A stretch of 63,559 nt of DNA, the filler included, from Sluysia triapertura (Eukaryota), in assembly GCA_046118255.1 (NCBI GenBank). It is 5 parts of 5 records of this genome, joined end to end, with 100 filler letters (N's around TTAATTAATTAA, not from the genome) between each part and the next. Parts side by side here need not be neighbours in the genome. Positions count along the whole stretch, not along the records: positions 26,404 to 37,590 come from JBJNIA010187689.1; 4 more parts are not named here. One strand, 5' to 3'. The notes beneath the pieces were generated by a model, which ran no database searches, had not been told where the DNA came from, and saw nothing but the letters and a program-made list of their open reading frames with translations. This document shows positions 14,791 through 58,095 of this stretch, one piece after another. Both the position numbers and the translations under genes were made by a program. Position 1 is the first letter of the stretch. The number at the start of each line of letters is the position of its first letter.

Positions 14791-15036
14791 TGGTCAACAT
14801 TAATAACCTAAAATTAAAATTAATACCTCCAAGCCAAATCTTGGAGTAATGATAGAGCAATTTGAAATATATGAAAATCATAATGTTATAGAGTTCGTAA
14901 AGACTATAAAGTTTTTCAAGTTAATGACTTTACCTGATACAGTCTTATCAAAAACGATGAATATAAAATTAATCAAGAAAATGTTTACAAGAACTATGAC
15001 GCTACAAAAACTGTAAAACTAACAATCTCTTTTTAC

Positions 15037-16100
15037 ATGACTTTACTAATTGATTTTCGAATAATTAGGAGAGAACTAATGTCAAATAACTCGGTTTTAC
15101 CAAATAATGATAATCTCAAGGTAAATAAGATCAAAACCCGTATCCAATATTTTATTAGCGAATCAATCGAAAGGAATGATAGTCTTCATGGATTAGTTTG
15201 TAGTCAAGAGTACGATCTTACGTCATTTATGAACTATAACTTTCATAAAGAAAATTTTGAAGGAATTCAGGCAGGTATCAACCACATCTCATTATACTTA
15301 TCTCAAGGTAATGTTTTTATATTAGAACTTATTTTATTGTAACTATTACGTTGGTTATACACTTATCATTTATAACAGTTTTATTATTTCAGAAACTGAC
15401 ACAATCAGGATCCTGAAAGAGAGGAGGTGTATAGAAGAAGTTTCAAAATTAAAAAACGTTTTTATTCATATTGTAATATATAGTTATTATTGTTACTTTT
15501 ACGAATTTGATTTTAAACCTGTGAAAATAAGAAATAATTCTAACATTTCATCAATTTTTAATACATCGAAGATAAAAGTTATAGATAAAATTATAACAAT
15601 AACTAACACTCATAAAACCTACTTCGGACACAACGATAAAGTTTTTAATATAAACATAAAATTAAGTCCAAGAGTTATCTATACGATGATAACAAATGTA
15701 ATAAGCCCTTTATCTCTCGAAAACTTAATAAATTTTTGTGGACAAATCAAAAATTGTATAACAATTAACAAATATGCAAAATTAATATCGAATGAAATCA
15801 AACACATGGCCATCCGAGACAAATATAGGTGTCAGACTAACGCCAACAAAAGACGTTTGCAAACCAATGACACCATATAAAGACTCTCTTTTTCGTAGCA
15901 TTCCTTAGGAATATTAATCACTGGATTACCAGAGAACCCGTAAGTAAATTTTAAATCATAAATTTATTGAAGTTAAGCAATAAATTCATCAATTATTTAC
16001 TGTTATTAATAAATTTTAGACAATTAGAGTTTGTTTTCATTAGAGATTAAAAGGAGAATTCAAATTGATAGTGTACATATAAAAGCACTTCCGTTTCTCA
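15037..16100 (+). pseudogene. Decayed gene-like region of unknown family with short GT-AG introns
   Basis: ORFs 15037-15342 and 15521-15880. Candidate introns 15308-15392 (AAG|gtaatg...tttcag) and 15940-16019 (CCC|gtaagt...ttttag). The 3' part is homologous to 5400-5625. Confidence 0.4.
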
Positions 16101-18230: not shown

Positions 18231-21200
18231 TTAGTAAGTTAAAAGGTATGAGTTTATATTTAATTTAAATATTTTAGGAAGGTCACTTTTTTCTTTTTAA
18301 GAAAATGGTTGAGGCCTAAATGGCTTTACTGATTCTTTCTCTTTATAAAAATGTCGATTGCGTCGTTGAAATTTAGTCAGGTTTGCTGGAAAGGGGGCAT
18401 GACAAATCCATTTTTGCTAAGATTCTTATGTGGACGTTTAGCTGGGGAGAAAGAATATCAACTCCAGGTTGCTCATCCGAGGATTCAGTTATATAGTCCA
18501 CAATAAAAATATAAGATCGACGAAATACTGCACATGGAACAAGAGGGCAAGGGAGAATAAGAAATGTTAAAAGATGGTATAAACTAAGGAAATGAAATTT
18601 GTGCAGTAAAGGAAGTGTTCTAGCGTAGTACTTCTTTATTGAACGGAAGCATATAGAACAATGTGTGTAGTACATGATTAGCTGAAACAAAAATATATAA
18701 TAAGACGATAAATATAATTATTAATTCCAATATATTAAATTAAGTATTTGTCCTGTGAAAGTAATTTCCTTATTTTAACAAAATTTTAAAAATGCATATG
18801 ACCAAAATTGATGAAAAAACCATCACAATGGTCAAGTATGCAAATATTATTGTTTTATTTTATTTAGATTTTATTGGTAATACGATTTTTTATTTAATGA
18901 GTAGATAAAATTTTGGGATGAAAATTGCTGTTAAGATATAGTTACCTATTGCGATTAAATGTTGAACTTAAACATTAACGGATCTTATTTTCTTAATGTT
19001 AGAGTTTCGATCTGTCTGAATCGTTTTTGTACTTATCGATGATGGTTTTGGGTAATTAAATTGAAATTAACTTTATGTTTGTTGGATAGATAATTGTGAG
19101 GTGTAATTGAATCAAAATAAAATTTGAGTTTGTTTAATGTAAAATTTCTAGAAATAATTTTATTGAGTTTATCTAATGAATATTTGCTGAAATATTACTG
19201 AAGTACCTTTATTAAAATTTTTTTGGTAACTATTAGAAATTAAAAAACTAAAATAATCTTTAAGACATTTAATAAACATATAAACTGTTTTGTTTATAAT
19301 TAAATGTTTAAGTGAAGATAAAATATCAAATGAACGTCGTTGAACATGTTGAGGGTATGACACTAAAAAAATCAAATAAAAAAGAGTAATAATAAAAGTT
19401 AAGATGCAATATTCGATATCCTGTAAAATCCCGAGCATAAGCTGCAACTAATACGTACATAAAGGCAGCATTTTTGAATTGTAGCTAGTATGATGTGCAG
19501 CTTATACTACTAAAACCCAATTCAAATTGAAGATAAGATTATTTATTTATTTCAATTTTCAACATCACACTCCTCAAAACCATCACACTTTTAATTGTCA
19601 ATAAAAGTGAAATTTTCTAGTAATTCTACAAGGTCATGAAAAACTGCAATGTTTGGATCAGACTTGTTCACATTCATTTCATTTTCTTCAATTTCAAGAA
19701 CATCAACGCAAATGATGCAGCTAATACTTGCTGCAGCTTATACGACTAAAAAATACACTTCCATAAAAACGTACTCTGCAGCTAATACTTTATTATAATG
19801 AGCATACATAATAAATGTATGTATCAAATTAATGGTCATTAAAGATCAGTAAATATATTATTGATATTGATGTGTGACGCAGCGTTAAAATGTTGCGCAT
19901 TGTATCAAAAGTTATTATTGAAAATAAGTTTTATATTTGATTAGATTTATATTCAATTTAAGTTAATGTATAGTTGTATTGACAAGTATTATTATAACTA
20001 TGATCTTAAATTGTAATTTTATTATTTTCAAAAAATAAGAATTTGTTTGTCACAAAACTCATTATCTTTGGATAATTGCTTGATAAAAATTCGAAGGAAA
20101 TTTATGTTCAAATTTGATTACTAAAATTGGTCGGCATAAAGTAAGCATATCGAATTCCCGACTTTCTAGCAATTATCCAAACACTGTATAAAGAACCACA
20201 TTTTTCTATCATTCAACACAAGCAGTACAGATTATTATAACTTTTGCTGTAAGAAAGCTGATTTAATACGGTACTGACAAACACTGATTGAGTCTTAAAA
20301 TTCTTTAGAAAAACGGACTAAATTTTATTAAAAGACCCAACTTATTTGTGGTTAGTTTTTATTGATTATTTATTATATTCTTGGTACTAACATTTATTTG
20401 TGATCTGTATTATAACTGAATTTTATTTTATTGAATAATTAATTATCATAAAACACTGATAAATTAATTTTGACTTAATTATTATTTGATTTTTATTGCA
20501 ATATATTGAGATTGAAAGTCATTTAATTGTCTTTTATAATTTAAAGAATATTAAAACGATAAAAGCACAACAATTTTAAGTCGTAATAAATAAAGATTTT
20601 GATTATAGTTTATCAATAAAATACGATTTAGAAATTAATCAGTAATCAAATCATTTTCGTACTAGTTTCCGCTAAATCTAAATCAATTTTAATAATAAGA
20701 ATTAGTCTCAGAAACATATTGGTGTAACATAATTATTTCAAAATTTGTAGCCACTCTTGAATTAGATTGCGATTATCGTATTAATGATTAACATCATCTC
20801 TAACTTTTTATAAAATCAATTATTGAATAAATCACAAAAATAATCTTTTTTCTTTATAAAGCTAATTTTGTTAGTTAATTATACAAATAAGAAAATTTAT
20901 TAAATGATTTTGAATTGGAATTTGGTGATTAGTGGCACTATACATTCTAATTGTCAAGTAGAATGTTCTATTTATAATGAAATGAGTGATATAAATAATG
21001 ATTTTATAAATTATTTATTTATTTGTACAACTTTATGGAATGGGCATTTAATAATGATTATAATAAAACTATAATAATTATGGTTATGATAAGTGGTTTG
21101 ATGATGATGATGATGATGAATTTCAAGGAAGCAGACCTTATTTAGTTATGTTTATAAATCATTTTTATTTTTATTAAAAATAGATCATGTTTTACATTAT

Positions 21201-28960: not shown

Positions 28961-30619
28961 CATATATTTTCAGAAAATTTGAAACGATTTAATATGGTTT
29001 GGCACACGAATAAAAAACAAGAAATAATAAACAACAGAAATTTTATTAGCATCAAAATAGCCACAGTATTAAGTATAAAATTTGAATTTTTAATTATCCC
29101 TAGTTAAATAATTATTTTTGATTTATGAATGTACATGATGTAAAAATCATTAAATTTTGAAAATGAACCTTATAAAACATTAAGGGTGGTCTTAAAAACT
29201 CAAATAAACAAGAATACAAAATAGTTGATAAAGTAAAATAAATTTGGACTTTGTCGAAACCAGGACTTTAGAGATTCCTTAATAAATATTTTAATAGCCC
29301 AAATTTGGGTAATAAAAGCTTGCGCAACAATAATTCGACGTGTTCATAACTTATAAATAATTATTTTAAATCATCATAATAAAACAAATAATTAGATATA
29401 ATTAAAAACCTATAATTCATTAATTTGGAATTAAGAAGCTAAGTCGATTATTAAAATTAAGAGCAAAAAACAAAATAAAACTTGAGAATAACGCCTGAAT
29501 AGGAGGGGAATGCATGGAAAGTTAATTTTAGAAGTTAAAAGAAAGATAGACAATAATTAGCTAAATTTATTCATATAAATTATATTTACTTTTTATCGTT
29601 TTATCTCAAAACTTATATTTTGCAAAAACATCATTTTTGTTGACTTAATTTTATCGCTTACAATTTTAATAAAACAAATTTTTTAATTTAATTTATAAAT
29701 ATTTAAAATAAAAGAATTCATTTAACATATTTTGGAATTAATTATAAAATTATATTGTTATATATTAATTAGAAAAAAAGAAAAGAAAGAAAATACCGCT
29801 TTTGAATAATTAATGCCGCTATATAACCTAAATGTTCTTGTATGTTATTTTGTTTGTGTGGAAAAGTATTCATAATTGAAATTGGTACCCTTTTCATTTC
29901 TTATTTAATTCGTTTATTATCATTTCAATTAAATTTACTAAAATTGAAGTTTATCTCTTAAAACTCATATTTTTAAATAATAATTATATGCTTTTGTAAT
30001 TCATGAATTAGATAAATATTGCTTATATATTTAAACTTTTGACTCTTCTTTCTCATTCCCGGAAAATTTGAAATTGCGAAAATCAATAAAATATAATTAA
30101 AGTGAAAACAATAGTTTACTATAATAAAACATGTTAAAGATAAATTGAAAGATAGAGATGATGTAGAAATTGCATAATAAAATGAAAAATAAAAGTATAC
30201 AGGGAGTGACAAGGTTACAATTAAAATTCATGAATAATGAAATACAATTTTCATATTGATAATCAAACTCTTATGACTTTGTAAAATAATGACCTTTTTA
30301 TGCAATATAATTTTATTTTGACAGATATATGATGGTATTATTTATATGATATGATAAAAATTCAGGCAAAATTCCAATATATAACAATATCAAAACAGTA
30401 TTACATATTAAAATTTAAAATTACAAATAATTAAATTATATTAATGTAAAAATTTTTAAAACATATTCTGAAGTCTGGTTCAAAATTATATCAATTTTTA
30501 TAACACATAACCTCCGGACTTTCCTCGGTTTTCAGATGTTGTTAAATTGGAAGTGTCCTATAGATATTGTACAAGTTAATTGATTCTAGGAAATCATAAA
30601 AGTTTCCATAATGTAGAAT

Positions 30620-30735
30620 CAATAAAAATGACGGGATTTCAAGGATAGGACTTCCTATCAAAACAACAAAAGATTGCATTGAGTGCTTACAACAAAGATA
30701 AGAAGATATCATTAATAACGGTGAAAATTATACTG
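30620..30735 (+). mobile_element. Possible Polinton/Maverick pPolB C-terminal remnant
   Basis: KQQKIALSAYNKDKK (30661-30705) resembles the Q.K.ALS..DDKR C-terminal motif of protein-primed PolB. Confidence 0.35.
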
Positions 30736-32529
30736 ATTAAAAGTTTAAATTTTACATTTTTAATTTTTAATTGATAAATCAAATCGGTGGAAAAAATTCC
30801 CAGCAATCCAGTAATGTACTTAATCTAAAATTAAAATTCATCATTACTTGATTTTTAAGAAAAACATATTTATACAAAAATACTTGATTTTGAATTTTTA
30901 TTCCAAATTGAAATCATTTTAAAATTAATAATATAACAATGATTTTAAAAATTGCACTTTAATATTAAAAAATTTGTTGATGATGAAAAAATTAATCTGA
31001 CATTATAGATTAACGTCAAAGAATTTTTGAATTCCTCATAAATGGTTTTTATAGTTTACAATCTTTGTTTAATACATGATTGGCGAATTTCGTATAATTG
31101 CATCATCTGAATTCATACGCATAGAATGTTAATCATTAATACCTTCAAGTATTTTTTAATTCAATATATTGTCTACGGTTAATGTGCTAATAAAATTGAA
31201 ATTTCTTAATTTGGTAAGTTTTAAAATACATGGTTAACGTTTTAAACATTTTAATTTCAAATACAATTAATTTGTTAAATATGCAAACTTATTAAAATTT
31301 TATCACGGTTCTTTATTATTCAACTATACAATGCATGCACCTTCATCACATGTTTGTTTATAACAATTCTTCTTTGTAATGCTTTATTTTCTCATAATTT
31401 GTTTGAAATTCCAAATAATGTGATTTTACTATACCTTTACAACTTCAAACTGGGAATAAACAATTTCAGTTTTGTAGTAAAAAAAATTGAAGTAGAAAAT
31501 AGACAACCAAACATTTAAATAAAAATAAAATTTAAAATCATATAAAGAAATCAGAAATAAATTAAAACAATATAAACATTAAACGACACAATTATTATTT
31601 AAAATTAACATCACATTAAGTGCATCAGGTATAAATCTTTGTATATGAGCGATATATTTGGTGCATTTCACAAATGTTAAATTTTTTATGCTTTTAATTG
31701 TTTAATTCTAATTTGAAATTGCTCATTTTTACTCACATAAAAAACTTACAGAGTAGAAAATATATGTTTTCACAACCCTACGAAAAATAAAAAAATTACT
31801 ATTTTAAGAATACACTAATAAAGTTACCATCAATTATAAATACATATTCTAAATATTATGAAAATTATTGGGAAAGCAAACTTTAACAGTATCTTAAAAC
31901 TCTAAACCTAATAAATAAAATATGCAACAGTAAATTGTCCTCTCAAAATACCTGTAATTTATGACACCATTATTATCAGAAACGAATATTGATGTATTTT
32001 AGGTATTTGATGAGTTCATGTTTATTTGGTTAAATCTAATACTTCTAAATTAGTTTAAGGTGCAAGTTTGACTGTTAAAATAAAAGATTTTTTGGATTTT
32101 CATTCATAAAACAATGAAACACTTAAAATAATAAAATAAAATTTTAAATCACAAATTGATAAAATAAAATAAAAGGAAATTTTTGATTGTTCTAGATAAT
32201 TTATATTGTGTTTAAATTAAAATAATTTGTTGGTAATTTGTAAAAATAAATGATTTTATTTAATATAGTTTTGTGAATGACTAAGAAATGACTTAAATAG
32301 AAAAATTAATCAACTTTCGAGAAACAAAATGCAATACAAACAAAAGAATTTGATTGTCATTTACTGTTCTTTTGAAATTTGGTTAAATTTTCCTGTCGTG
32401 CTTATTATATTTTAATGTCTTTATGTATATTTGAAGAATGTAATATTAATTTAATAATTCTTGATTTTTTGGAAATTTAATTTCTTTTTTAATAATTATT
32501 TTATTGTTTTTGTTGTATTTGTAATTTAG

Positions 32530-32733
<204 letters not shown>

Positions 32734-35159
32734 TGACCTGCAAACTTTTTATGGGTAATCTACAACGCTCTAACTCAATATATCTTTGAATTATAGTTAT
32801 TTGATTTGATGTGGAAATAATCACTTATCTATCTTTAAACTTTTTTAAAAACAGGATAACCAACTTTACAATACAAAAATCTATGATTACGCATTTCGAT
32901 CCGTTGAAGCTAATTTGTCAATTAATACTATCGAAAAACCAAGTTTAGAGGTGGTTTTATTTGAATCACCCGAATAAATCATAAAGTTGATGATTGATAA
33001 GATTATGACTTTACTTTATGACAATGACAAGATCTAGTCAATCGACTTTTTTAACCCATTAAGTAACAATATATTTTGGAAGAGTATACCGATGTAACTT
33101 TAAAAAAATTATAATAAACTTATAATTTTTGTTGAAAATTTATGTTCATAAATAAATTTTATTGGTATTTTGAATAAAACGCTGGTGACCTAAATTGGAA
33201 CATTGATATTGATTGAGTTAATATAAGTTCTTTCGACTTGGATAAAATCAAAAACGCTTTAAAATCCTTTCCAAAAATAGTTGATACGACGATATTTTTG
33301 ACTTTAATGTTAATATAGTTTTTAAAATATATTGTCTTAATGAATGTTTTATAATTATTTTACGTAACCACATAACTTCACTAAACTAAACCATATAGTT
33401 TATTATTATTATTTTATTACTGTTATTGTTGTTAATACTTATTTTATAGCTTTTGTATTTTAATTTTATTTCAAATATACTGTAATTTTTATTTAGATAT
33501 TAAATACTGACTTAAATCCTTTTCTTTAGTATTATCAAATTATTCTGAAGGTTAATGTTCCTACTCGTCTCTGATGTAATAAATGGAAGTGCAATTAATT
33601 TTAAACGAAGTAAAAACTTAGTAAAAAACACAAGGTTTATTTACCACAAAACTAATATAAAAATGTTTAACAAAAGTAAGAGTGCCACACGTTATTTTGA
33701 GTAATATTTTTTCTTTTAATTTTTATATTAGTTTATTCAATAAGTTTCACAATTAAGTGAAATATAATCAAAGGTTTAATATAATTCAATAAACTTATCA
33801 ATAGTCTTCAATAGCTTCGGTAAGAAAATGTTACAAATCTTCAACTTTAAATAATTATTACAAATCTTCAATAACTGCAATGTGAATGTGATAATAATTG
33901 TGGTAGTGCAGTGCAATTTGTTGGTGCTTATAAACTATTTGTATAATAAATTCCAAAAATATTTATTTCAGTAATTCCAATTTCAATAATTCAAATATTA
34001 ATTTACTGTACTATACATTTAATTCCATAATAATTATTTATTTTGTAATTTCAATGTTAACAAATTCTATAACAATTAAAAATTCTATTAATTGTTTAAC
34101 TATTCATTAAAAATAATATTAAGAATTCTATAATAACTATACATAATATATAATTTTAACAATAATAATTTAACGTTAATTTAATTTCATAAATAATATA
34201 ATAATTTAATAAATAATATGTACTTCATACTTTATTATAAATTTGCAGTGCTAAATAAGTTAGTCATAACTCGAACGTAATTGGTATGCATTAAAATTAT
34301 AAAATACAAACATGCGAAATAACTAAATAATTGTTACTCAATTTACTTAACTTCTACAACCATTATATCATTCAATATATTTTACCCATCTGGTTTCTAA
34401 ACTCATTTGATATCTTTATGTAAAATCTATTATTTTGTATGGTTATTCGTATAGAATTTTTGCATTCGCTATTTTATGAGTTTTTTTCTGACTTGGAAAC
34501 TTCGGTGTGTCATTTTTGTCCCACAGATATCTTCTAGATTTAATTGTAACCATTAGATTTCTACAAATGAGTGTTACTCTTTCTACTAAATCATTAAAAT
34601 TGCCTTCATAATATGAAAGTATTATGATTCTTTGTCTTACCATGTAAGAAATTCTAATCATGATTTCCACATATGTTTGAAACGGTCTTTTTGGTTTATT
34701 ATGTATTCAAAATATCTAATATAACCTCTTATTTTTAATTACGTAGAGGAACTAATCAAAATTAAATTAAACAGTAATCACTGCAAAATATTTATTCGTA
34801 TGCACTGCCTGAGTTATTTTTCTCCTATATCAACAATTTGTTAAAATTTATAGTCTAGTTTTCCATGTGTAAATATTTCCTTATTTACGTTTCTTAGGTG
34901 ACAAACTTACAATTATTTATTACTTTCTTGACATGTTTACCCAAAACAATAACTTGTTTGTATTGAAGTGTATTTTAATGATAAAATCATCAATATATTT
35001 TTCATGTACAGTTAACTTAAGTTAGTTTTCTTTTAGTACACATAGTTGGTCGTTTTTCCAGAAAAATATTTGATAAAGGTTTACAAGATCGATTTGGTTG
35101 AACTTATTCGTTATTCGATTTGCCAAAATCTTTCTGATTAAAAGTGTCTTATTTAAATT

Positions 35160-36278
35160 TAAGTTTGGTAATTGTTTTTATGGATTAGATTAATAAAATT
35201 ACAAAAAGTTTTAAATTCATGACTTATAAAACACATTATTTGAAGGCCATACGATTTAAAATAAAAATAATACATTTCTTTAATTTTATTGATCAAAAAC
35301 TTTATTGCATAAGCTACTTTGAGTCTTTCCAAAATGCGCCACATGATTTGTAGACTAGTTCTACGACCTAAAATAAAAGGGATAACTAATAAGATTTCGT
35401 CATAAGTTTTATAAAATTTTACTTTAGTAGCATCAGGATCGTTGATTTGATGACGGAATTTCATCTTTGAGCCAAATTTTGTATTCATCGGATTGTCATA
35501 CAAGGACATCAATAATTGTTGTCCTTCTATGTGTTAGTTGATGATCGCTGGCCAACATTGGTTCCTGCAGCTGATTTATCGTGTGTGCAAGTCTGCATGC
35601 AGATTTGAATCTTAAACATTTCCCATACTGATCAGCATTGTATGGGCATGACATTGAACGTATTTTGACATTTTGTGCATCATCAGACTGACTTTTTGAC
35701 AGATAGTATTTAATACATTCGTCGTATTCCTAATCGTTCTATCTTTATTAGGTTGTTTTGTCTCTATTGGTACTATTTCATTCTTTCGACACATATGGTG
35801 TGATCATGGACATTTGAATATACATTGTGATTGACTAATATTACATCAAATCCTTTAGATTGGATTATATTATGGATTGTTATAAGACATTTTTCATGAA
35901 TGACATTAATCAACATTTCCCAAAATTCTACATCATCATCTAACATATCTAACCTATTACGAAATTTTCTCTTTGTTGAATCTGACATGACTTCTAAAAC
36001 TTTGCTAAATTTTATCGTTTCATCAACTTCAATCATTGTATGGTTTTTAGTACTAAAGTTTTGTTGAAATCACAACATGTATTCCTAGGATCACGTTGTT
36101 GCATTATAATTAACACGGAACTTCTATTTGATAATTTATCGTCGTTCATACATATTAAAATAATCATTTTTGATATTACCGTTGTAAAAAGATTTTTTAA
36201 AGTTTCTAAAGAATCGTTATTAATAATTTGTGCCCACAAGTAACGTTTGTATACCATGACCATTGATTGGTCATCCAA
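35160..36278 (-). pseudogene. Divergent Roquin-like (ROQ + HEPN-C + CCCH array) pseudogene
   Basis: YLWAQ...KMIIL......LSNRSSVLIIMQQRDPR......KT......Q parallels Roquin NLWAA...KLVLL......LSRKVLVLFVVQRLEPR....SKT......Q. RKFRNRLDML..D..FWEMLIN parallels NRLRPHLELL..ID...TWEQLEN. Then CPYNADQYGKCLRFKSACRLAH (CCCH, 35583-35648). Frameshifted. Confidence 0.65.
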
Positions 36279-36316
36279 CCAGAGGCATTGAGATGAAAGC
36301 TCTGGTTGGATGACCA
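36268..36316. repeat. Perfect 17-bp inverted repeat (hairpin, 15-nt loop)
   Basis: TGGTCATCCAACCAGAG (36268-36284) and CTCTGGTTGGATGACCA (36300-36316). Confidence 0.95.
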
Positions 36317-36609
36317 GTAAAAATAGATAGAGTAATTAAAAAAGACTATATTGATTTAGAGATGAGCCACCATGAATGTTGACGTAAATTTATACATAGT
36401 GATTAGTGTTATATAATTGGTGATTTGTATAAAATTTTTCGCTTTAAAATTTGAAATAATAATAATAACACTAATGATAAAAATGATAATAATAATAATA
36501 ATAATAATAATAATGCACAATATTATTATTATTATTACTATTAAATTTACATATATTCTTATAATAAACTGTACATGATCTTTCTTTGTAATCTTTGCCT
36601 TCTAAACAT

Positions 36610-37470
36610 ATTAGACTTTAAAAAAATGAAGCTTATATAATTGTGGATTAGTGATGTTAAGGCTTAAAGATATAAGATAATGCGTAAGGCGTTATAATAT
36701 AAATTTTAATTGCTGATTTCTAGGTTTGAGTAAGTTTAAGATAATTGAGCCTAGTGTTCTATATGAAATAATGTTTCTGACTGAAAGTGTTAATAGATCA
36801 TGAGTTATTATTATGTTATAAAGGTGTAGTTTAATGTATAAAAGTAGTGATGTCCTAAGTGCTGTTGAGACTTCTGTGATGCAGATCATGAATTTGGAAT
36901 GTTTGAATTAGTTTGAAGATATCAGGTGGTTAATTTCGAATATGATTGTGATTGAATTGTTAAGAAATGAAGAATAAAATATTTTAAAAGAATTTTTTAA
37001 TGTAAATTAATGGTTTGAATATAATTGTGTTTTGGATGTTATGAGATTATGGATTTAAATTGACTTTAACGGATGAAAATGTTTTAGTGGATGTGAAGAA
37101 GATAAATATGGGAATGTTAAAATGTTAGAGAATATGGTTTATAAATACAATGTGTTGATTTGGTTTAATATTGTTTTGTGTTGATTTTGAAAGTAAATTG
37201 TAGATTTTGAGGGTGTATGTGATTTTGTTGTATTAGGAAGAAAAGATTTTAATAAAATTTGATAATAGTGAAGGTTGACCACTATTATTATTATTATAAC
37301 CATTAACACATTGAAGACGATATTTGATGAAAAGCATATAGCCTGAATTTCCGCATATTTTGTTGAAATTATATAAATTAAAAGTAAATTACATAAATTA
37401 TATAAATTATATGAGATTGCTTGAAATTCCAAATAACATGAATTAACGTCATCAGTCCTCAATGTGTTAA
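36610..37470 (-). mobile_element. Degraded LINE AP-endonuclease region (L2/CR1-like)
   Basis: Fragments such as YIISTKYAEIQAICFSS and (D)LICITE...HDLL resemble APE strands and the LDL..T...SDH end. Many stops. Confidence 0.35.
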
Positions 37471-37590
37471 TATAATTATAATTACTATTATTATGATTAC
37501 TATTATTGTTATTATTAATATTACTATTATATTACTATTACTATTATATTACTATGATTATTACTACTAATTTTGTTAGTACTAATCGTA

Positions 37591-37690
37591 NNNNNNNNNN
37601 NNNNNNNNNNNNNNNNNNNNNNNNNNNNNNNNNNTTAATTAATTAANNNNNNNNNNNNNNNNNNNNNNNNNNNNNNNNNNNNNNNNNNNN
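37591..37690. other. Artificial contig-joining spacer
   Basis: 44N-TTAATTAATTAA-44N. Confidence 0.97.
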
Positions 37691-38929
37691 TGAGTTGTTG
37701 AAATGAATGTAAGAGTTTATTGAGTTGGGAATGTTCAGATATGGATTAATTTATTGTCAGATGTAGTCTGGTGAAGTGTTAGGGTAGTAGTTGTGAGTAT
37801 TATTATTTTATGTGATGAATTTTTTATTTTATTATTAAGTTTAAAGGTTGGCCACTACATATATAATGAAATAATATCTTTTATGATATAAATTAACGAA
37901 AATAGAAAAAACGTTGCCTTTTTCATAATCTTGCCCTAATTTAACATTCTCTGATAGATGATTGTATATTTTTATAACATAAACGCTATATAATCATTCA
38001 CATATTCTGCATAAATTGTTATATCTTAAAGAAAGCCATATATTTAATCATTTCCATAGTGTAAGCATTTATAAATTATTATTTCCTTGATTTTGAATTC
38101 AACTCTTGCTTTTATTGATATTATTATTTGGAATAATAATAATATATTAATTTTTATATTATTATTGTAAGTGATGCACATACAAACATTGTTATACATA
38201 CAAGCACGGACAATTTAATTATTGATTTCATTTTGTGCAGTGAATATACTTATTGATTTAATTGCATATTATAACTTTAATTATTTTATTGGACATTATT
38301 TATTAAAACAATATTTATTAAAAATATTTTTTAATTTTTAAATAGTTTCTGATAAATTTTAATTTTAATTAATTTTGATAAATGAATTTAATTTTAAAAT
38401 TTTATTTTTAATTATAACTTTTAGATAAATTTTGATAAATAAATTTAAAAACTTTTAAATTAACAAAATAGTTGTTTTGTTTGTCCAAAGTCATCAAGGA
38501 GGACTAAAATTAATGTATAACCGAAGTTTGAATTAAGTAAAGACATAATACAAAATTTGGTTTAAAATATTTGCAGATTTTTTTTAATTCGGAAGGAGAT
38601 TTACAGGACAAACATACAAAATTGTTTCGTTACTTTATTTTTGATAAGTTTGGTAAATTTTTAATAGTAGATAGTGTAAAATATAATTAAATTCATTTTA
38701 TTAAACTTTTGGAATCATTTAGTGATTCCCTGGCAAAATCATTTTTTAAACTCAATGATACATTTTTTTCTATTAACTCAATAGTTAATAATGAAACATA
38801 TTATCATTATAAAATTATATTTTATGCAATTTATAAAGAATTTTTAATATACATTGGTGATTTAATTTCTCTTTCAGTTTAACATTTTGTGATCAAAAAA
38901 GATTCATATAACGAATCTACTGTAAAATC

Positions 38930-39620
38930 ATAAATTATTTTCCTTAAAAAGTTTTTCCAAATTTTATTCGGATTCGCAAAATCATAATTAATTACAAATC
39001 CTTTTAATTGGATTGATCGCAAACTTAATAAGGAATTTTGTATTCAATTAATCTGAGCAATTAAGGCTTAGTAATTGATTAAAAAAATTTTTGGTCTCCA
39101 TTTAAAAGAACTAACTGGTAAGCCTAGTTTGTTGGTGAACTTACTCTAGTTATTCGTAAGTCTAATTAAGAAAAATACTATCAGAATAAACTTTTATTCG
39201 TGAGAGTCATAGATAAACTTATTAACCGAATCTCACATAAGCATCTAGAGTACATCATTCATTATAATGTTTGAGAAATTTGGCTTTTTAAGTATTCCTA
39301 GTCTTTCATTCATTTGCCATTCACTTGTTTTATTATCACTGTGCATTCTGTATAAATTGCAACATTAATTTTGGTTTCCAAAGAAATAGATTTGAAAAAA
39401 GTAATTTTTAATCTAAATTTAAATATTTGCAATTTTTAGTTTTATTTATCTATACTAACCAACGTATTGTCGAAATCCAATTATACTTATGAAAATAAAC
39501 AATAATCCAGTACTGTATTGATAATTTAATTGGTCCACAAAATCGATATCATTTCCACCATAACTAGTGTGAAAAAATCGACCAACTTTCATAAACGTAC
39601 TCGCTTCCATTATTAAATTT
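38930..39620 (-). mobile_element. Probable Polinton/Maverick protein-primed DNA polymerase B remnant
   Basis: Colinear degenerate motifs on the minus strand: EYVYESW (~39582-39602, cf. PYEY.DSW), KYLNLD (~39411-39428, cf. Y.LDP), LPVSSFKW (39098-39121, cf. LP.GGFKW), FGKT (38950-38961). Confidence 0.45.
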
Positions 39621-41568: not shown

Positions 41569-41790
41569 AAAGAGTTAATAAATAATAATAAGTAAATAAT
41601 AATAAATAATAATAAATAATAAATAATAAGAGTTAATAAATAATAATAAATAAATAATAATAAATAATAATAAGTAATAAATAATAATAAATAATAAGAC
41701 TTAATAAATAATAAAAGAGTTAATAAATAATAATAAATAAATAATAATAAATAATAAGAGTTAATAAATAATAAAGAGTACATAAATAAT
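41569..41790. repeat. Compound minisatellite (aagagttaataaataata + (aat)n)
   Basis: About five copies of aagagttaataaataat separated by aat runs. Confidence 0.9.
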
Positions 41791-41809
41791 AAAATAAAAC
41801 TTTAATTTC

Positions 41810-42130
41810 CTCTTGGAATGATATATACAAATCTAAATCATAAGAAAAAGGAAAACGTTCTAACGTCAACAATGAACACCTTTGTATGGGGATAGATACA
41901 GTCGGTAAAAGGCTTATATTCTGGTGTTTTGTAATAGATTGGCATAGACGCATAGCACAGTGTAATAAAATTCTGGTTACAACTTCGGTATATGGAGATT
42001 TCATTACGTTCTCCATATTTTGATATTGTGCTACTTTAGTTTATTCGCAAACATGCATGATAGTTTTGAGTCATTATTTGTACGAATGAGGTCGAACTCA
42101 ATTATCTGTAATTCCCGAGGTTTATGTGGT
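41810..42130 (-). mobile_element. Gypsy integrase N-terminal fragment
   Basis: HCAMRLCQSITKHQNI.....SIPIQR resembles the C..C..CQ..K.......IP..RF region preceding DIVGP. Confidence 0.45.
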
Positions 42131-45100
42131 GGAATCAGTATAGAAATATCACAAACAAAACCTATAACTCGTAATGAATGTCTAGCCTAAATCACGCATT
42201 CCTAGATCATTTAATAGTTCTTTTAAAATCTCTATTTCATAACTTTTACAACTAATTAATTCTCAACGTTATTCAATAAACCATTTTAATAATAACGTTA
42301 ATTCATTAAACAAATTCATTCTACACATCATCTACTGACTCAAACAATATATAATTTATTTAACAATATAATTCATTAAATTCACTTCGTATCCATACGT
42401 TTCTAGATAATCAAATGACACCATGTCACAGATTACAATATTCAGTACATCCACAAAATTGATAAACAGACACGAAAATGATATCTGAATTTCAAACACT
42501 ATTGACAAGAAGAAACAATAATGAAACAAAGTCGCTTAAGTAAGATAAAACTTATCAATCAAAACTTATAACTAATCGCTCCGTTTATTTCTACAGAAAA
42601 CAATCGTATTATTACTTTATAAATAAAAATTTATTTCAAGATTTATTTATGTAAAAACATTTATTACAGCATTTATAATAATTAATGTATAATAAAGTTA
42701 ATTATTATTTTATTAATTTATTATTTTCACATTAAAATTATATATTCATGTGAGCTTTAAACTTCGACAAATGGTCATTTTGCATAAATATAATAAAAAT
42801 ATGTTCATTTCTATTCATATTTAATAACCACATGAATCAAAACCTGGTGTTTTCCATAGAACTTTTTATGATAGTTAATTCTACATGTTTAATAATGTTT
42901 ATTTAACCAAATAAATACTTTTAACAATTTACTGTCAATTTGTTAAAATAATTTTTCTACCTAATTTAAATTCGTGTTTTGGTTATTTATAAATTCAATT
43001 ATGTATTGTCACAAATTTATCATATTTCATTATCTACTGAAATGATATTTTCTTTTTCCTTTTATTTATATGTTTATTATATAATAAATTTCATTCGAAA
43101 TTATATTAACTATAATGTTTAGTTTAATGTATCTATTTTAAAAATAAATAATATAAAAAAATACATCAGTATTATAAATTATTTTAAAAATTAAATTTTT
43201 GTTTAATAAAATAATTAAAAAACAAATTTCAGTGCTTTAATTATCTAATAAAATAGTTAATTTTAATTAGAAAAGTTTTATTTTTATTGTTTTTTTTGTT
43301 AAAGATTTTAGAATGAATTTTCATTAAGTAATAAATGTAAAAACAATAAATGTTACACTTAAAAAATGTTTACATTTACATATTTTTAATAATCTCTTAG
43401 AGATACGAATAATGAAAATAACTTATAATACATTAACATTAAGTCTTACATCAAACTAATTAGGTTTGTCGAATTTTAAATAAATAATATTTAATGAATT
43501 TAATGCATTAAATTTAATCCATTTTAATGTTTTAAAATGTTATCCAATATTTTACTTTTTTATTATTCAAAAAATAATTAATTAAATTATATAAATTTCG
43601 TTAAAATAATTAATTAAATATGTTTAAAATATAAATTTACACAGTAGTTCATATTATTAATTAATTAATTATTTTGGAAGTTTTATTTATTTTACTTATT
43701 TTATTTTATTTATTTGTGGATTAAAAATCAGTCGTCTTTTTTGGGAATCAAACTATATTTCAAATTAAATTAAAATTCACAATAAGTTTAAATCGAAAAT
43801 TTACAGAAATTGAAATAAACTACTGCGTCAGTCAAATCATGGCCAAGTAATAAATGATCCATATAAAAATTAAATTGTATTTTTATCTAAAATAATGGTA
43901 TTAAAACCTTACTTAAGATTCTTCAACCGTTACGAAGAATCTAATTAAAAAAACAATTTTAAAAATGGAAATAATTAAATAAAAACCTTCTTTTGAAGTG
44001 TATTATACTTTGTATTTATTAGTTTAGTTTTATTTCTTTAATTATATCTTTATTACATAATAGTAAATTAATTGTTTGATGTGATAAATGTAAATTAAAG
44101 ATTAATTATTTTACAATTTTTATATAATTAATAATAACAATAATTATTGATAATATTATTGTAGAATGTGATAAAGTAACAGTAGTGGTATTTACCTTAG
44201 TGATAATATGTATTCAACAAAGTTATTTTTATCACAATTAAGTTTTTCTTTATATTACTTTTTCTTTTTAGGCCAAAAAGAATTCCCATTATATAAATTT
44301 TTCTGACGAAATTATTTCGTAAGTATTAGTTTATCTTTTTTATACATTGAATTAGTAGAAGAAATTCAAGAATATAAACATACTGAATTTAATTTATTAT
44401 TTGCAAATAAAGTTATTATTATTTATTATTTATTATTATTAATTATTATTTAATTATTATTATTAAATAAATAAATGGTTTTATAATTTTAGAAATTTCG
44501 TATTTTATATTGCATTAAATTATTGTAACCATATAGAAAGAAACAAATCTATTAAAATATAACCGAAAATATTTTATTAAAATAATAAATAATTAATTAA
44601 AAATCATAATTATATTTTTTAAAAATAAAATAAATAATATAAACAATATTTTAGGAATAACAAAAAAAATTTTTCATAAAAAAATATTTTTTGTTTTAAA
44701 TTATAATTTATAATAAAGATTATTAAAATTCTTGAATTTTCTTTAATCGATCAGCTGAATGAAACAAAAATTCTTAAAAGAAAACCAACTTTATTTAGGC
44801 AAGTTGTGTTTCTTTCTAAATGAGAAAAAATTCAAAAAATTAAAAGGATTGATGAAAAAGTTAAATCTGAATATTGTATTAACATTGACAATGAATTATT
44901 TAAAAAATGTACTAATTATGAATATATAAAATGAATAAATATAAATAAACATATAACTAAATAAATAAACACGACAATAATATTATATAAAAGAAAATGG
45001 CTCAAAAATCAAAAAATAAATCATAAACACATAAAACAAAAGAACGACATTGTACCAAGCTTGTTTTTATTATCTTATATGAAAGAAACAATGATTTCAA

Positions 45101-45489
45101 TAGTCATAAGTAAATCATATCAAATAAATATACTAATTGCATAATTGAAGGTGATTTACTCATCCTTCAGAAAAGTTTACTTCTACGTCTTAAACTATTA
45201 GTTTCGATTTTAAATTTTTATATAAATTTATATAACTTTTAGGATTTTCTGGTTAGTAATGTGAGATTAAATAATTTGTACGATTTTTTGGCAAAAAATT
45301 AAAAAAAGAATATAATTTGTTTTATGTCCAATGGCAAATTGTTCAAAACTTCTGATTCTTCTATTGTCCTATTATGTGTTTGCATAAATTGCAATATTTC
45401 TTTAAATTATTCAAAATGTTTCTTCAACCATTTTTTAATATTTCTTGTAACCCATTCTACATAACATTTTTTGATTTTAATTGAATTTT

Positions 45490-45917
45490 TATCGTGTAAT
45501 TTGTGCATAAGTTCCCATTTTTTTGAGAGGTCGCAATCCATGGCTTGTCAAAGCTCGGATCATGATAAATCACTCGGTCTGACCGCGGTGCAACGTTTAA
45601 ATCAAAATTTCCCAGTGTTAAATTTCGAAAACCACATTTGTGCTGTTCCTTTTCTCCATAAACGCAACAAATCATTCTGGTTGCTTCTTCAGCGTTTAAA
45701 TGTTGATTAAAATAGAAAAGGAGTAGATGTAGGAAATGTTCATTTTTACCTATCTGACACTCCATTTTAATGAGGGTAATGAAAGTGAAAGTTAGTCTGA
45801 AATAATTTAATTAGATAATTCAGCTGAATGAATATAACTCAAATCAGTTAAAACAAGAAGTTGGTGTGTTTTCGGTGCAACAAATAAAACCGCACGAACT
45901 TATGCACCAACCCAATA
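45490..45917 (-). mobile_element. Internally deleted mariner element (transposase N-terminal HTH + TIR)
   Basis: EHFLHLLLFYF.....AEEATRMICCVYGE....F.....GNFDL..APRS is the mariner HTH. Terminal TATTGGGTTGGTGCATAAGTTCGTGCGGTTTT on the minus strand (45886-45917). Degenerate partner tgtgcataagttc near 45502. Confidence 0.9.
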
Positions 45918-55184: not shown

Positions 55185-56389
55185 CTGAACATAAAAATTT
55201 ATGACAAGACAATAAATAATTTTAATTATTATTATTAATGAAATTTGTTCTAAAGTAATAAAGAAATTACAGATTTTTAAAATAATACAAGATTGTGTTA
55301 TTTACAAACTCCGAAAAGAATCAAACAAGTTGGTTCTATAATATGACTTTTTGTTTGTGAGGATCAGCCATCGAACAAGGTCAGCTACTACATGACCAAC
55401 TTGTTTCGCTTAACTTTTGAGGAATAAATGAGCTCTACAGCGAAGAAAATTATAAAATTTATGAACCTGCACCAAAAGATTGGTATATTAGTATATAATG
55501 ATGGAAAGGAGTTGCATAGAAAATACATATAAAGTTTTATTATTACAATTTTTGACAAAGTTAAATTAAGATTAGTTTTAGTTAAAACATTATTTAATGA
55601 TTTTTGACTATTCGTGTTAAACATAATTGGTGTACTTAATGATTTTATTTCTATCCTTAATAGTTGACTTGCATAATTGTATCTCCTGAAATTTATCTAT
55701 AATTGTAACTCTTAGATCATACATTCTAATGATAAGCCAGAAGTCTATCGTATCTTGCGTTTCGATTTTTCGTAATATCCATATTCGTATGAATAACATT
55801 CGGTAAGCTGGTAAATGAAACAATTTGATACTTGAATGTGGAGCAATTAATCCGTAATGCAACCCATTGTACAACTCGTAGGCTATAATATTGGTATGGC
55901 TTACAAATGGGTTTTCTATATGTACAATATCACCGTCGTAACGATAAACAATCAGTGGAAATTCAATAGTTACTGATGCTTTTAGAGTTATAGAGAATCC
56001 TTGAAAAGTGAATGGTTTGATCCGAATTTTGTACTTTTGTTCCAATATCAATTTTGAGTTGTGTTAGTTTATACTCGAATTCCAAAATTAGTGTAACTTG
56101 AAATAATTGATATTCAAATAAGTCTTCACATGAGACTATCCAATAAAAAAACTTTGAAGACAAAATTTCATAGTGACATTAACTATTTTTGTATTATTTA
56201 AATTGATAGTAGCGTAAATATCCTTTTGACTGGAATCTAAAGTAATTCGAGGTTGATTATGTTTTGATATTAATCCTATCATGTGAGTATTTTTTGTCAA
56301 TGCTTGTATATCCGAAATATATGTTAAACAGATACAGGATTCTTGTGAGCATTTTATTTGCAATCCTGCTCTTCTCCAAGCATCTTGTA

Positions 56390-58095
56390 AATTTTCTCAT
56401 AATAGTTACATATTCTGGTATATCTAAATATTGTGATGTAGGTGGCACCCAATCTAAGTCTACCGGCATGTTATAATGTCGGCCATACATATGAAAAAAT
56501 GGAGTAAAGTTGGTTGCTGGTTAAACCGAGCTGCGATAAGCAAATAAGCATGGTGCTATATGAAAATCCCAATCATTGTGCCTTTCATTTACATATGATT
56601 GAAGCATATTCATTAATGTGCGATTAAATATTTCTATCAATCCGTCGGTTTGAGGATGGTAGGGTGACGTATAAATTCTTAATATATTAAAGATTTTCGC
56701 AATCGATTTAATTACATCACTTATGAAATGGGTACCTTGGTCGGTAAGTAGTTTTCTTGGCGTTCCGTATCTATAGATAATTTTTTCTACTAATATTTGA
56801 GCTACAGTTTCGGCTTTTTGGTTCAGCATTGGATATACCTCAGGCCATTTTGTCAGATAATTCATAAATACTATGATGCATTTATTTCCCGTTATTGTTT
56901 TCGGAATCGGGCCCATAATGTCCATTGCCGTGAATTTCATAGGTGACACTTTTGTTTTCTGTCCTGTATTTTCGCAATTTTTACACCAAGTCTTAATGCC
57001 ATCCATATTTTCCCAGTATTTATTTTTTATCATAGAGAATGTTTTCCTAGCTGATAGATGTCTTCCTAGTTGTCCATCATGGAACTGAATTAATATTGGT
57101 ATAACTAGTGATTGGGGAATAATTCTCCTTTTGTATTTTTGAATTTTAAAACGCCATCTGTAATTGCAGGTCTTTTTGCTTGTTTATCATTTAGAGTTAC
57201 TTTTGCCATTACGTCAAGTATGAATTAAATATCCTTATCGTCCTTTGATGTTTAACGATTTCCTTGGGATTTTCAATCTTTCCCGAAATAGTCATAATTT
57301 GTGTCAAACTTATATTATCCTTTTCGTCTGTTTTAGTTAGTCTGAACATGCAGTCAGCTCCACTATTTTGTTTTCCGGGTTTGTAAACAATTTCTAAATC
57401 GAATTCGGGCAATTTTGTAAACTACTTATTTCATCCATATGATTGTATAAGTATGTCATAAGTTTACTTTTTGTCCTAAATAGTTTACAAGCATAAACAT
57501 TCCCTTTTTATTGTTGAATAATTTATTTCAGCCTTATTTAGTCTCCGACTGGCGTACGCTATAACTCCTAGATTATTATGATCTTTTTGTCCTAAAATTG
57601 CGCCAATCGCTTAATTACTTGCATCTGTGGTTAATATAAACGGTTTGTTAACATCAGGAAAAATTAGCATTGGAGTGGTTGTAAGTTTCTCTTTTAAAAG
57701 TAAAAATGTTTTGTTTTGATTGTCAGTCCATTCGAATTTTACAGCCTTTTTAGTGAGCTTTCTTAAAGTATTTTACGAATCTTCGATAATAATTATCAAG
57801 TCCTAGAAAGCTCTAAACTCTTTATGTTGTCTGGTTTTGGAAATTTAACCACTTTTTCTATGTTTCTTGGATTTGGTTTAATACCTTATGACACAATATG
57901 TCCTAAAAATTCGACTTGCTGTTAAGCCCATACACATTTTGTGAGTTTTATTTTTAATTTGGCTACTTCTAATCTTTTTAAAATATTATCAGTATCCCTT
58001 AAGTGTGTTTCAAAATCTTTCGAGAAAATTATTGTTATTTATGTAGACCACGACATTTTTACAACCTGATGGAACGAAATTCATGCATCGCTGGT
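56390..58095 (-). mobile_element. Second Ty3/Gypsy pol remnant (RT C-half, RNase H, integrase)
   Basis: QRCMN...VVY(INN)..IFSKDFETHL; VEFLGHIVS; FLGL; FILTTDAS..AIGAIL; YKPGKQN..AD; MDIMGP, KWPE, TDQG, YHPQTDGL.E.FNRTL, FAYRSS. Confidence 0.93.

Follow-up and report, generated by a model that had tools for sequence, protein, structure and literature searches.

The window analysed here is a stretch of 63,559 nucleotides (filler included) of DNA from Sluysia triapertura (GCA_046118255.1), made up of five joined parts, and the locus described lies in the part taken from JBJNIA010187689.1. The window is AT-rich animal DNA, mostly 15-31% GC per 2 kb, with Gypsy-type and mariner remnants. The minus strand of 35162-36335 is decayed protein-coding DNA, tiled by four open pieces and a bridging frame (Table 1). 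Five open stretches are needed to cover it, against 18 on the plus strand and, in 2000 shuffles, 21 on average and never fewer than 11. We therefore take the segment for a decayed gene whose length was about 390 codons or more. Among 97 blocks of the window the fewest stretches needed were six to eight, in Gypsy pol remnants and in one block overlapping this same locus. The frame is broken about four times in this copy. GT..AG pairs in phase are found between pieces 1 and 2 and between pieces 2 and 3; none was found between pieces 3 and 4, and the breaks therefore cannot all be introns. The earlier note had read the locus as frameshifted minus-strand coding frames with Roquin-like motifs in the right order, and as nearly intronless. 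The motifs LWA (36239), RNRLDML (35961) and WEMLIN (35922) were confirmed at the places given, and an intron-poor decayed gene is supported.

Table 1. Coordinates and strands of the features at and beside the decayed gene.
Feature	Position	Strand	Remarks
Multi-copy segment, approximate extent	35100..36450		Left boundary by the piece 4 stop codon; at each listed place 5-19 contigs differ
Open piece 1, 100 codons	36036..36335	-	Weak likeness to the ROQ first half of Roquin over the final 68 codons
Open piece 2, 98 codons	35776..36069	-	Holds the HEPN-C-like segment of the earlier note
63-codon open frame bridging pieces 2 and 3	35615..35803	-	May be coding sequence or lie within a short intron
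Open piece 3, 77 codons	35499..35729	-	Contains the CCCH finger
Intact CCCH zinc finger, C-x9-C-x6-C-x3-H	35583..35648	-	Seen in the sequence; Pfam zf-CCCH_UNK match below cut-off
Possible eroded second finger, no in-frame cysteines	35450..35509	-	Rank 4 of 127,000; length varies between copies
Open piece 4, 124 codons and stop	35159..35533	-	Helical by prediction
AAT/ATT microsatellite	36447..36545		Separates the gene from the high-copy repeat
Separate, much higher-copy repeat	36570..37420	-	Decayed coding signal, same strand as the gene

The claim of an intact CCCH finger was borne out by the sequence and by a Pfam match, albeit one that falls below the family cut-off. The finger matched a single Pfam family, zf-CCCH_UNK (PF25427), with E 8e-4 (E 3e-4 as a 45-aa piece) and 21 bits, the cut-off being 31.1. 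The generic zf-CCCH model did not match it, although that model does match Roquin fingers; true Roquin fingers score 22-23 bits against zf-CCCH_UNK. The spacing between ligands was x8/x5 in 50 of 54 Roquins and x7/x5 in the other 4, and in none was it the x9/x6 seen here, which we take to be the spacing of the third Unkempt finger. When searched with a hidden Markov model (HMM) built from 11 Roquins, piece 3 was the best of 1792 window frames, yet with E 1.7, and its E value ranged from 1.7 to 8 across our two Roquin HMMs. Motif scans revealed no Unkempt-like fingers upstream and no intact neighbouring fingers, and the search for two or more intact CCCH fingers in one frame, as in proteins of the TTP, Unkempt and MBNL types, yielded one finger.

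A tandem array of such fingers had also been proposed. We scanned 127,000 positions for eight generic finger features. The proposed second unit has H, F, G, F and Y at finger positions, 44 codons past the intact finger, and about 0.013 scores as good would be expected within the 410 nt behind that finger. It is thus mildly above chance, but it has none of the three cysteines in its own frame and a frameshift supplies the first of them only. The supposed third unit (KSCGAFW, 35349) is not in the frame of the 124-codon open stretch and lacks the finger pattern, and the fourth, at rank 269 with three of the eight features, is at chance level. No Pfam finger match was obtained for piece 4 or for its first 44 residues. 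Because the second unit lacks in-frame cysteines and the other two do not differ from chance, the array reduces to one intact finger and perhaps one eroded one. Of the 124 residues of piece 4 itself, two are Cys and four are His; its single-sequence structure model is helical at low confidence (pLDDT 45), and it had no match in Pfam, the PDB, the protein atlas or among the homologues searched. A LOTUS-like domain in piece 4, considered by eye, was dropped, as neither Pfam nor the PDB gave support.

For comparison with Roquin we assembled a reference set by motif scanning of metagenome contigs, which gave 50 loci and 11 distinct proteins extending to the finger, and enlarged it by a profile search from which the best 120 of 619 sequences were added; very divergent Roquins are consequently under-represented. 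In a whole-segment alignment, piece 1 shares 14 of 65 residues (22%) with the first half of the ROQ domain. With 12 of the 46 distinct first halves of ROQ it scored 39, a value reached by none of 1000 shuffles (-3.6 +/- 6.9) and well above the next best of 63 window frames (9.8), with boundaries that had been fixed from the earlier reader's eye. After correction for the choice of segment, 5/600 and 11/500 shuffles scored as high (P about 0.01-0.05). Reversed-sequence controls were at chance (98/300 and 189/300). Three of 65 decoys taken from real proteins matched the z of piece 1 against Roquin, and 14 identities were reached by 705 of 5000 shuffles. Of the six RNA-contact residues in the ROQ first half named in the excerpted text of PMC5603727, four are identical in piece 1 (W184, K239, T240 and Q247), while K220 is replaced by Arg and F194 is lost; three further contacts named there (Y250, K259 and R260) fall past the break that ends piece 1. 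This agreement was equalled by 127 of 5000 shuffles. For five overlapping ROQ segments, piece 1 came first among the sites of the window with a standard background, and ranked 4-12 with a mixed one. In pairwise local comparisons with Roquins, the shuffles (per 300) scoring as high numbered 3 and 4 for piece 1, 35 and 5 for piece 3, 213 and 200 for piece 2, and 287 and 222 for piece 4; the top single-sequence match of piece 1 among 131 Roquins was to a different part of the Roquin protein.

Standard searches gave no such indication. The Pfam ROQ models (PF21206 and PF18386) were silent on all pieces while control Roquins gave E 1e-48, so that the HMMER comparison with ROQ_II proposed in the earlier note produced no match, and the locus has no good site for the ROQ_II (PF18386) columns. 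Piece 1 found no match in a PDB sequence search and had E 26 and 13 with the Roquin HMMs (11 and 131 sequences), pieces 2 and 4 were not among the top matches listed for those HMMs, and HHalign against Roquin returned probabilities of 0.9%, 0.04% and 1.0%. The single-sequence model of piece 1 (pLDDT 41) gave an empty fold search, and fold searches with the single-sequence models (pLDDT 41 and 45) reached a best Z of 5.2, which is uninformative. What stands of the proposed ROQ domain is thus a whole-segment likeness that is borderline at the level of sequence and for which neither Pfam, the PDB, the HMMs nor HHalign gave a match; in view of how many tests were made, we put Roquin ancestry at about even odds. 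If the alignment is right, about 95 codons are absent between pieces 1 and 2, which comes near the earlier suggestion that about 80 residues of ROQ are missing at about 36035.

The HEPN-C segment proposed for piece 2 fared less well. Its motifs RNRLDML and WEMLIN are where they were said to be, and its best Roquin segment falls in the HEPN-C columns, but 290 of 600 shuffles scored as high, which is chance level. The domain order (ROQ-like, HEPN-C-like, finger) is that of Roquin. In a frameshift-tolerant alignment to Roquin the locus ranked second of 86 blocks, with 1-2 of 150 shuffles as high. With the finger included, 0-2 of 100 shuffles and 0-2 of 70 blocks of the window equalled the frameshift-tolerant chain; with it left out, 7-30 of 100 shuffles did. 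Pieces 1 and 2 in order were equalled by 95-259 of 300 shuffles, the swapped order scored equally, and the best Roquin score of the bridging frame was reached by 76 of 600 shuffles. Roquin HMMs that include the RING detected none upstream, nor did Pfam in any minus-strand frame of 35149-37460; the DNA upstream of the gene consists of the microsatellite and another repeat.

Evidence for other copies came from one public sequencing run, which holds 0.48 of the sampled words and may be the source sample; its contigs were compared with positions 29000-37600 of the window. On the left flank, contigs of depth 15-19 are free of other letters as far as 35192, and one contig identical to the window spans 34026-35192. 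From 35244 to 36154, by contrast with this flank, another letter occurs in 5-19 contigs at each of 18 listed places (summed depth 92-585), and in three listed contig pieces of 213-390 bases there are 19-32 other letters as well as 10-23 gaps (7-13% other letters plus gaps). The best-supported differences are those listed, with a further 311 places, 34 length differences and 93 joints beyond them, and contig depth is not equal to copy number; for these reasons "many diverged copies" is the safe claim. Accordingly, 35162-36335 is a repeated segment, with many diverged copies in this one run. The copies vary in length near 35520, and one contig substitutes 35464-35523. Seventeen of the 18 listed differences sit in assigned pieces, 3 of them silent and 14 replacement (neutral silent expectation 0.244), and none of the 18 hits a ligand codon of the finger. 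The breaks in frame, together with the 3 silent against 14 replacement differences, indicate that this copy is likely dead, and production of a protein from it is unlikely.

The earlier note had further suggested a mobile element or virus as carrier. Such a carrier is possible, yet neither a terminal repeat nor a replication gene could be tied to the gene: there were no terminal repeats in 33500-39000 among the repeats listed (20 of the 29 direct families and 25 of the 200 inverted pairs), and the flanking frames had no Pfam match, although this copy may be a fragment. Reverse-transcriptase-like motifs noticed by eye at 34900-35100 were rejected, as this DNA has no Pfam match, is single-copy and has a coding signal reached by 67 of 500 shuffles. 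The neighbouring repeat beyond the microsatellite shows 14-103 differing contigs at each listed place in 36787-37415. Twelve open stretches cover 36336-37500, as few as in 2 of 500 shuffles; the frames of the repeat had no Pfam match, and by eye it looks Penelope-like.

The host genes nearest to the locus are represented by single exons. A lone STK38/NDR kinase exon at 32530-32631 (+), 2.5 kb from the gene, is identical to an STK38 PDB chain at 26 of 34 residues (E 9e-14), and an innexin-like first exon lies at 39460-39615 (-), with a splice donor near 39460 (Pfam E 0.0024). Since motif scans over 63 kb found no further exon of either, the CCCH gene probably lies in intron space; the two host genes may be nested, as the innexin exon faces the kinase exon from the other strand.

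We found no relatives of piece 1 among 53 candidates or of piece 4 among 64, and none in viral or metagenome contigs. A frame read through its stops was compared with 1.84 billion representatives, and the lone match (E 9e-4) was discarded because it is a tandem repeat of three units in an unrelated genome. No RNA data set was listed as containing the sequence, a result without bearing on expression. The protein atlas was blank for piece 1 and gave only unnamed plant clusters below 0.9 for piece 4, PHROGs held nothing below E 0.019, the two Rfam matches were both far under the gathering score, and scans of viral contigs for Roquin or Unkempt motifs found none. Among the literature matches listed (titles and the starts of abstracts, in a collection from which most subscription journals are absent), none reports a mobile or amplified Roquin.

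Roquin is described in the excerpted text of PMC11172303 as highly conserved and as a single gene in invertebrates; in those of PMC11381341 and PMC5603727, its ROQ domain binds stem-loops and its finger AU-rich single strands. The gene described here resembles Roquin (RC3H1 and RC3H2, RING-HEPN-ROQ-HEPN-CCCH) in a possible remote ROQ first half in which several RNA-contact positions align, and in a CCCH finger that lies about as far on as expected and has similar flanks, a basic lead-in and an AH tail. It differs in having no RING, HEPN-N, ROQ second half or ROQ_II, in its 22% identity, its x9/x6 finger, its many copies and broken frame, and in a short helical tail where that of Roquin is long and disordered. 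With the Unkempt-type finger it shares its sole Pfam match; Unkempt fingers, however, occur in clusters of three, whereas the finger here is single and scores below the cut-off. Large retroelements can carry host domains, for example the planarian Burro, according to the excerpt of PMC6431247, and bdelloid LTR elements have extra ORFs (PMC5408684). As in these cases, the locus has host-like regulatory domains in many decaying copies, but nothing of a carrier, be it gag, pol, LTR or another part, is tied to it, and the excerpt of PMC6431247 names no Roquin or CCCH cargo.

Our preferred reading, which we hold tentatively at just under an even chance, is that 35162-36335 is a frameshifted, likely dead copy of a repeated, intron-poor, one-finger gene that likely came from the RNA-binding half of Roquin. 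Piece 1 would then be a remote ROQ domain with about 95 codons lost behind it. The intact ancestor would have bound RNA via its finger and, if piece 1 is ROQ, via a winged helix, and by analogy with Roquin this protein of 390 codons or more might have gripped stem-loops together with neighbouring AU-rich single strands. Lacking a RING and ending in a short tail modelled as helical, it could have bound RNA on its own or competed with the host Roquin. Its copies, the edge that lies close to the stop codon and the abundance of repeats around it suggest that a mobile element may have multiplied it as cargo; a family of host paralogues that became amplified would fit equally. We consider it unlikely that a mobile element or endogenous virus of an invertebrate captured the RNA-binding module of Roquin without the RING ligase, added a second finger and a new helical tail, and spread it in many copies as an mRNA regulator acting alone or as a decoy against mRNA decay of the host Roquin type.

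The blank results of all standard ROQ searches and the chance-level score of the finger-less chain would be expected if this were a dead repeated CCCH-finger gene unrelated to Roquin, for example an accessory RNA-binding gene of a mobile element or a member of some lineage-specific family whose finger is of Unkempt type, and the ROQ and HEPN likeness a coincidence between helical, amphipathic segments. That 3 of 65 decoys equal the Roquin match of piece 1, that the only Pfam match is to an Unkempt-like finger and that no Roquin among 54 has x9/x6 spacing point the same way, and we give this explanation somewhat less than an even chance. It does not account for piece 1 being the best window site for five overlapping ROQ segments (standard background), for the flat reversed controls or for the enrichment of RNA-contact residues; nor were Unkempt-like fingers found upstream or Unkempt chains matched in the PDB. 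The full reading of the earlier note, with an array of at least three CCCH fingers in place of the proline-rich tail of Roquin, draws on the position and score of the second unit and on the copies that differ in length near it, whose reading may therefore differ. Given the few Cys and His of piece 4, its want of a Pfam finger match, its helical (low-confidence) model, the out-of-frame third unit and the low-ranking fourth, we regard such an array as very improbable. Most improbable of all is that this is the ordinary single Roquin gene of the host with its breaks due to tiny introns or assembly errors. The two in-phase GT..AG pairs would suit it, but pieces 3 and 4 have none between them, the Roquins of our set are 54-90% identical to one another over the region against 22% here, no RING lies upstream, and the stretch is repeated while invertebrates have one Roquin gene (excerpt of PMC11172303). 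With 14 of 65 identities beside the well-conserved 26 of 34 of the host STK38 exon, the earlier judgement that the copy is too divergent for a Roquin orthologue was sound. Should the preferred reading, a Roquin-derived repeated gene, be true, a RING-less, repeated offshoot at 20% identity would place a ROQ domain outside the conserved single-copy Roquin family (as described in the excerpt of PMC11172303) and be a hint that an mRNA-decay adaptor can be acquired by mobile DNA; should the ROQ likeness be chance, the locus comes down to a dead repeat gene of an ordinary kind, with a single finger and without relatives in the collections searched.

Elsewhere in the window several frames deserve mention. 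Two open frames (134 and 184 codons) at 14938-15880 (+), with no Pfam family under E 0.06, lie directly behind a decayed Gypsy pol (about 11.9-14.7 kb) and may be an extra ORF of that element, as may the open frames without Pfam match at 55388-56063 (-) behind a Gypsy integrase (56521-57183). A 114-codon frame at 18373-18717 (-) without Pfam match has, by eye, the look of an eroded RING-H2, and the block at 41720-42190 (-) has few breaks (13 against a mean of 21), its 106-codon frame being likewise without Pfam match. The sequence at 45457-45810 (-) is a mariner transposase remnant (HTH_48, E 1.4e-6).
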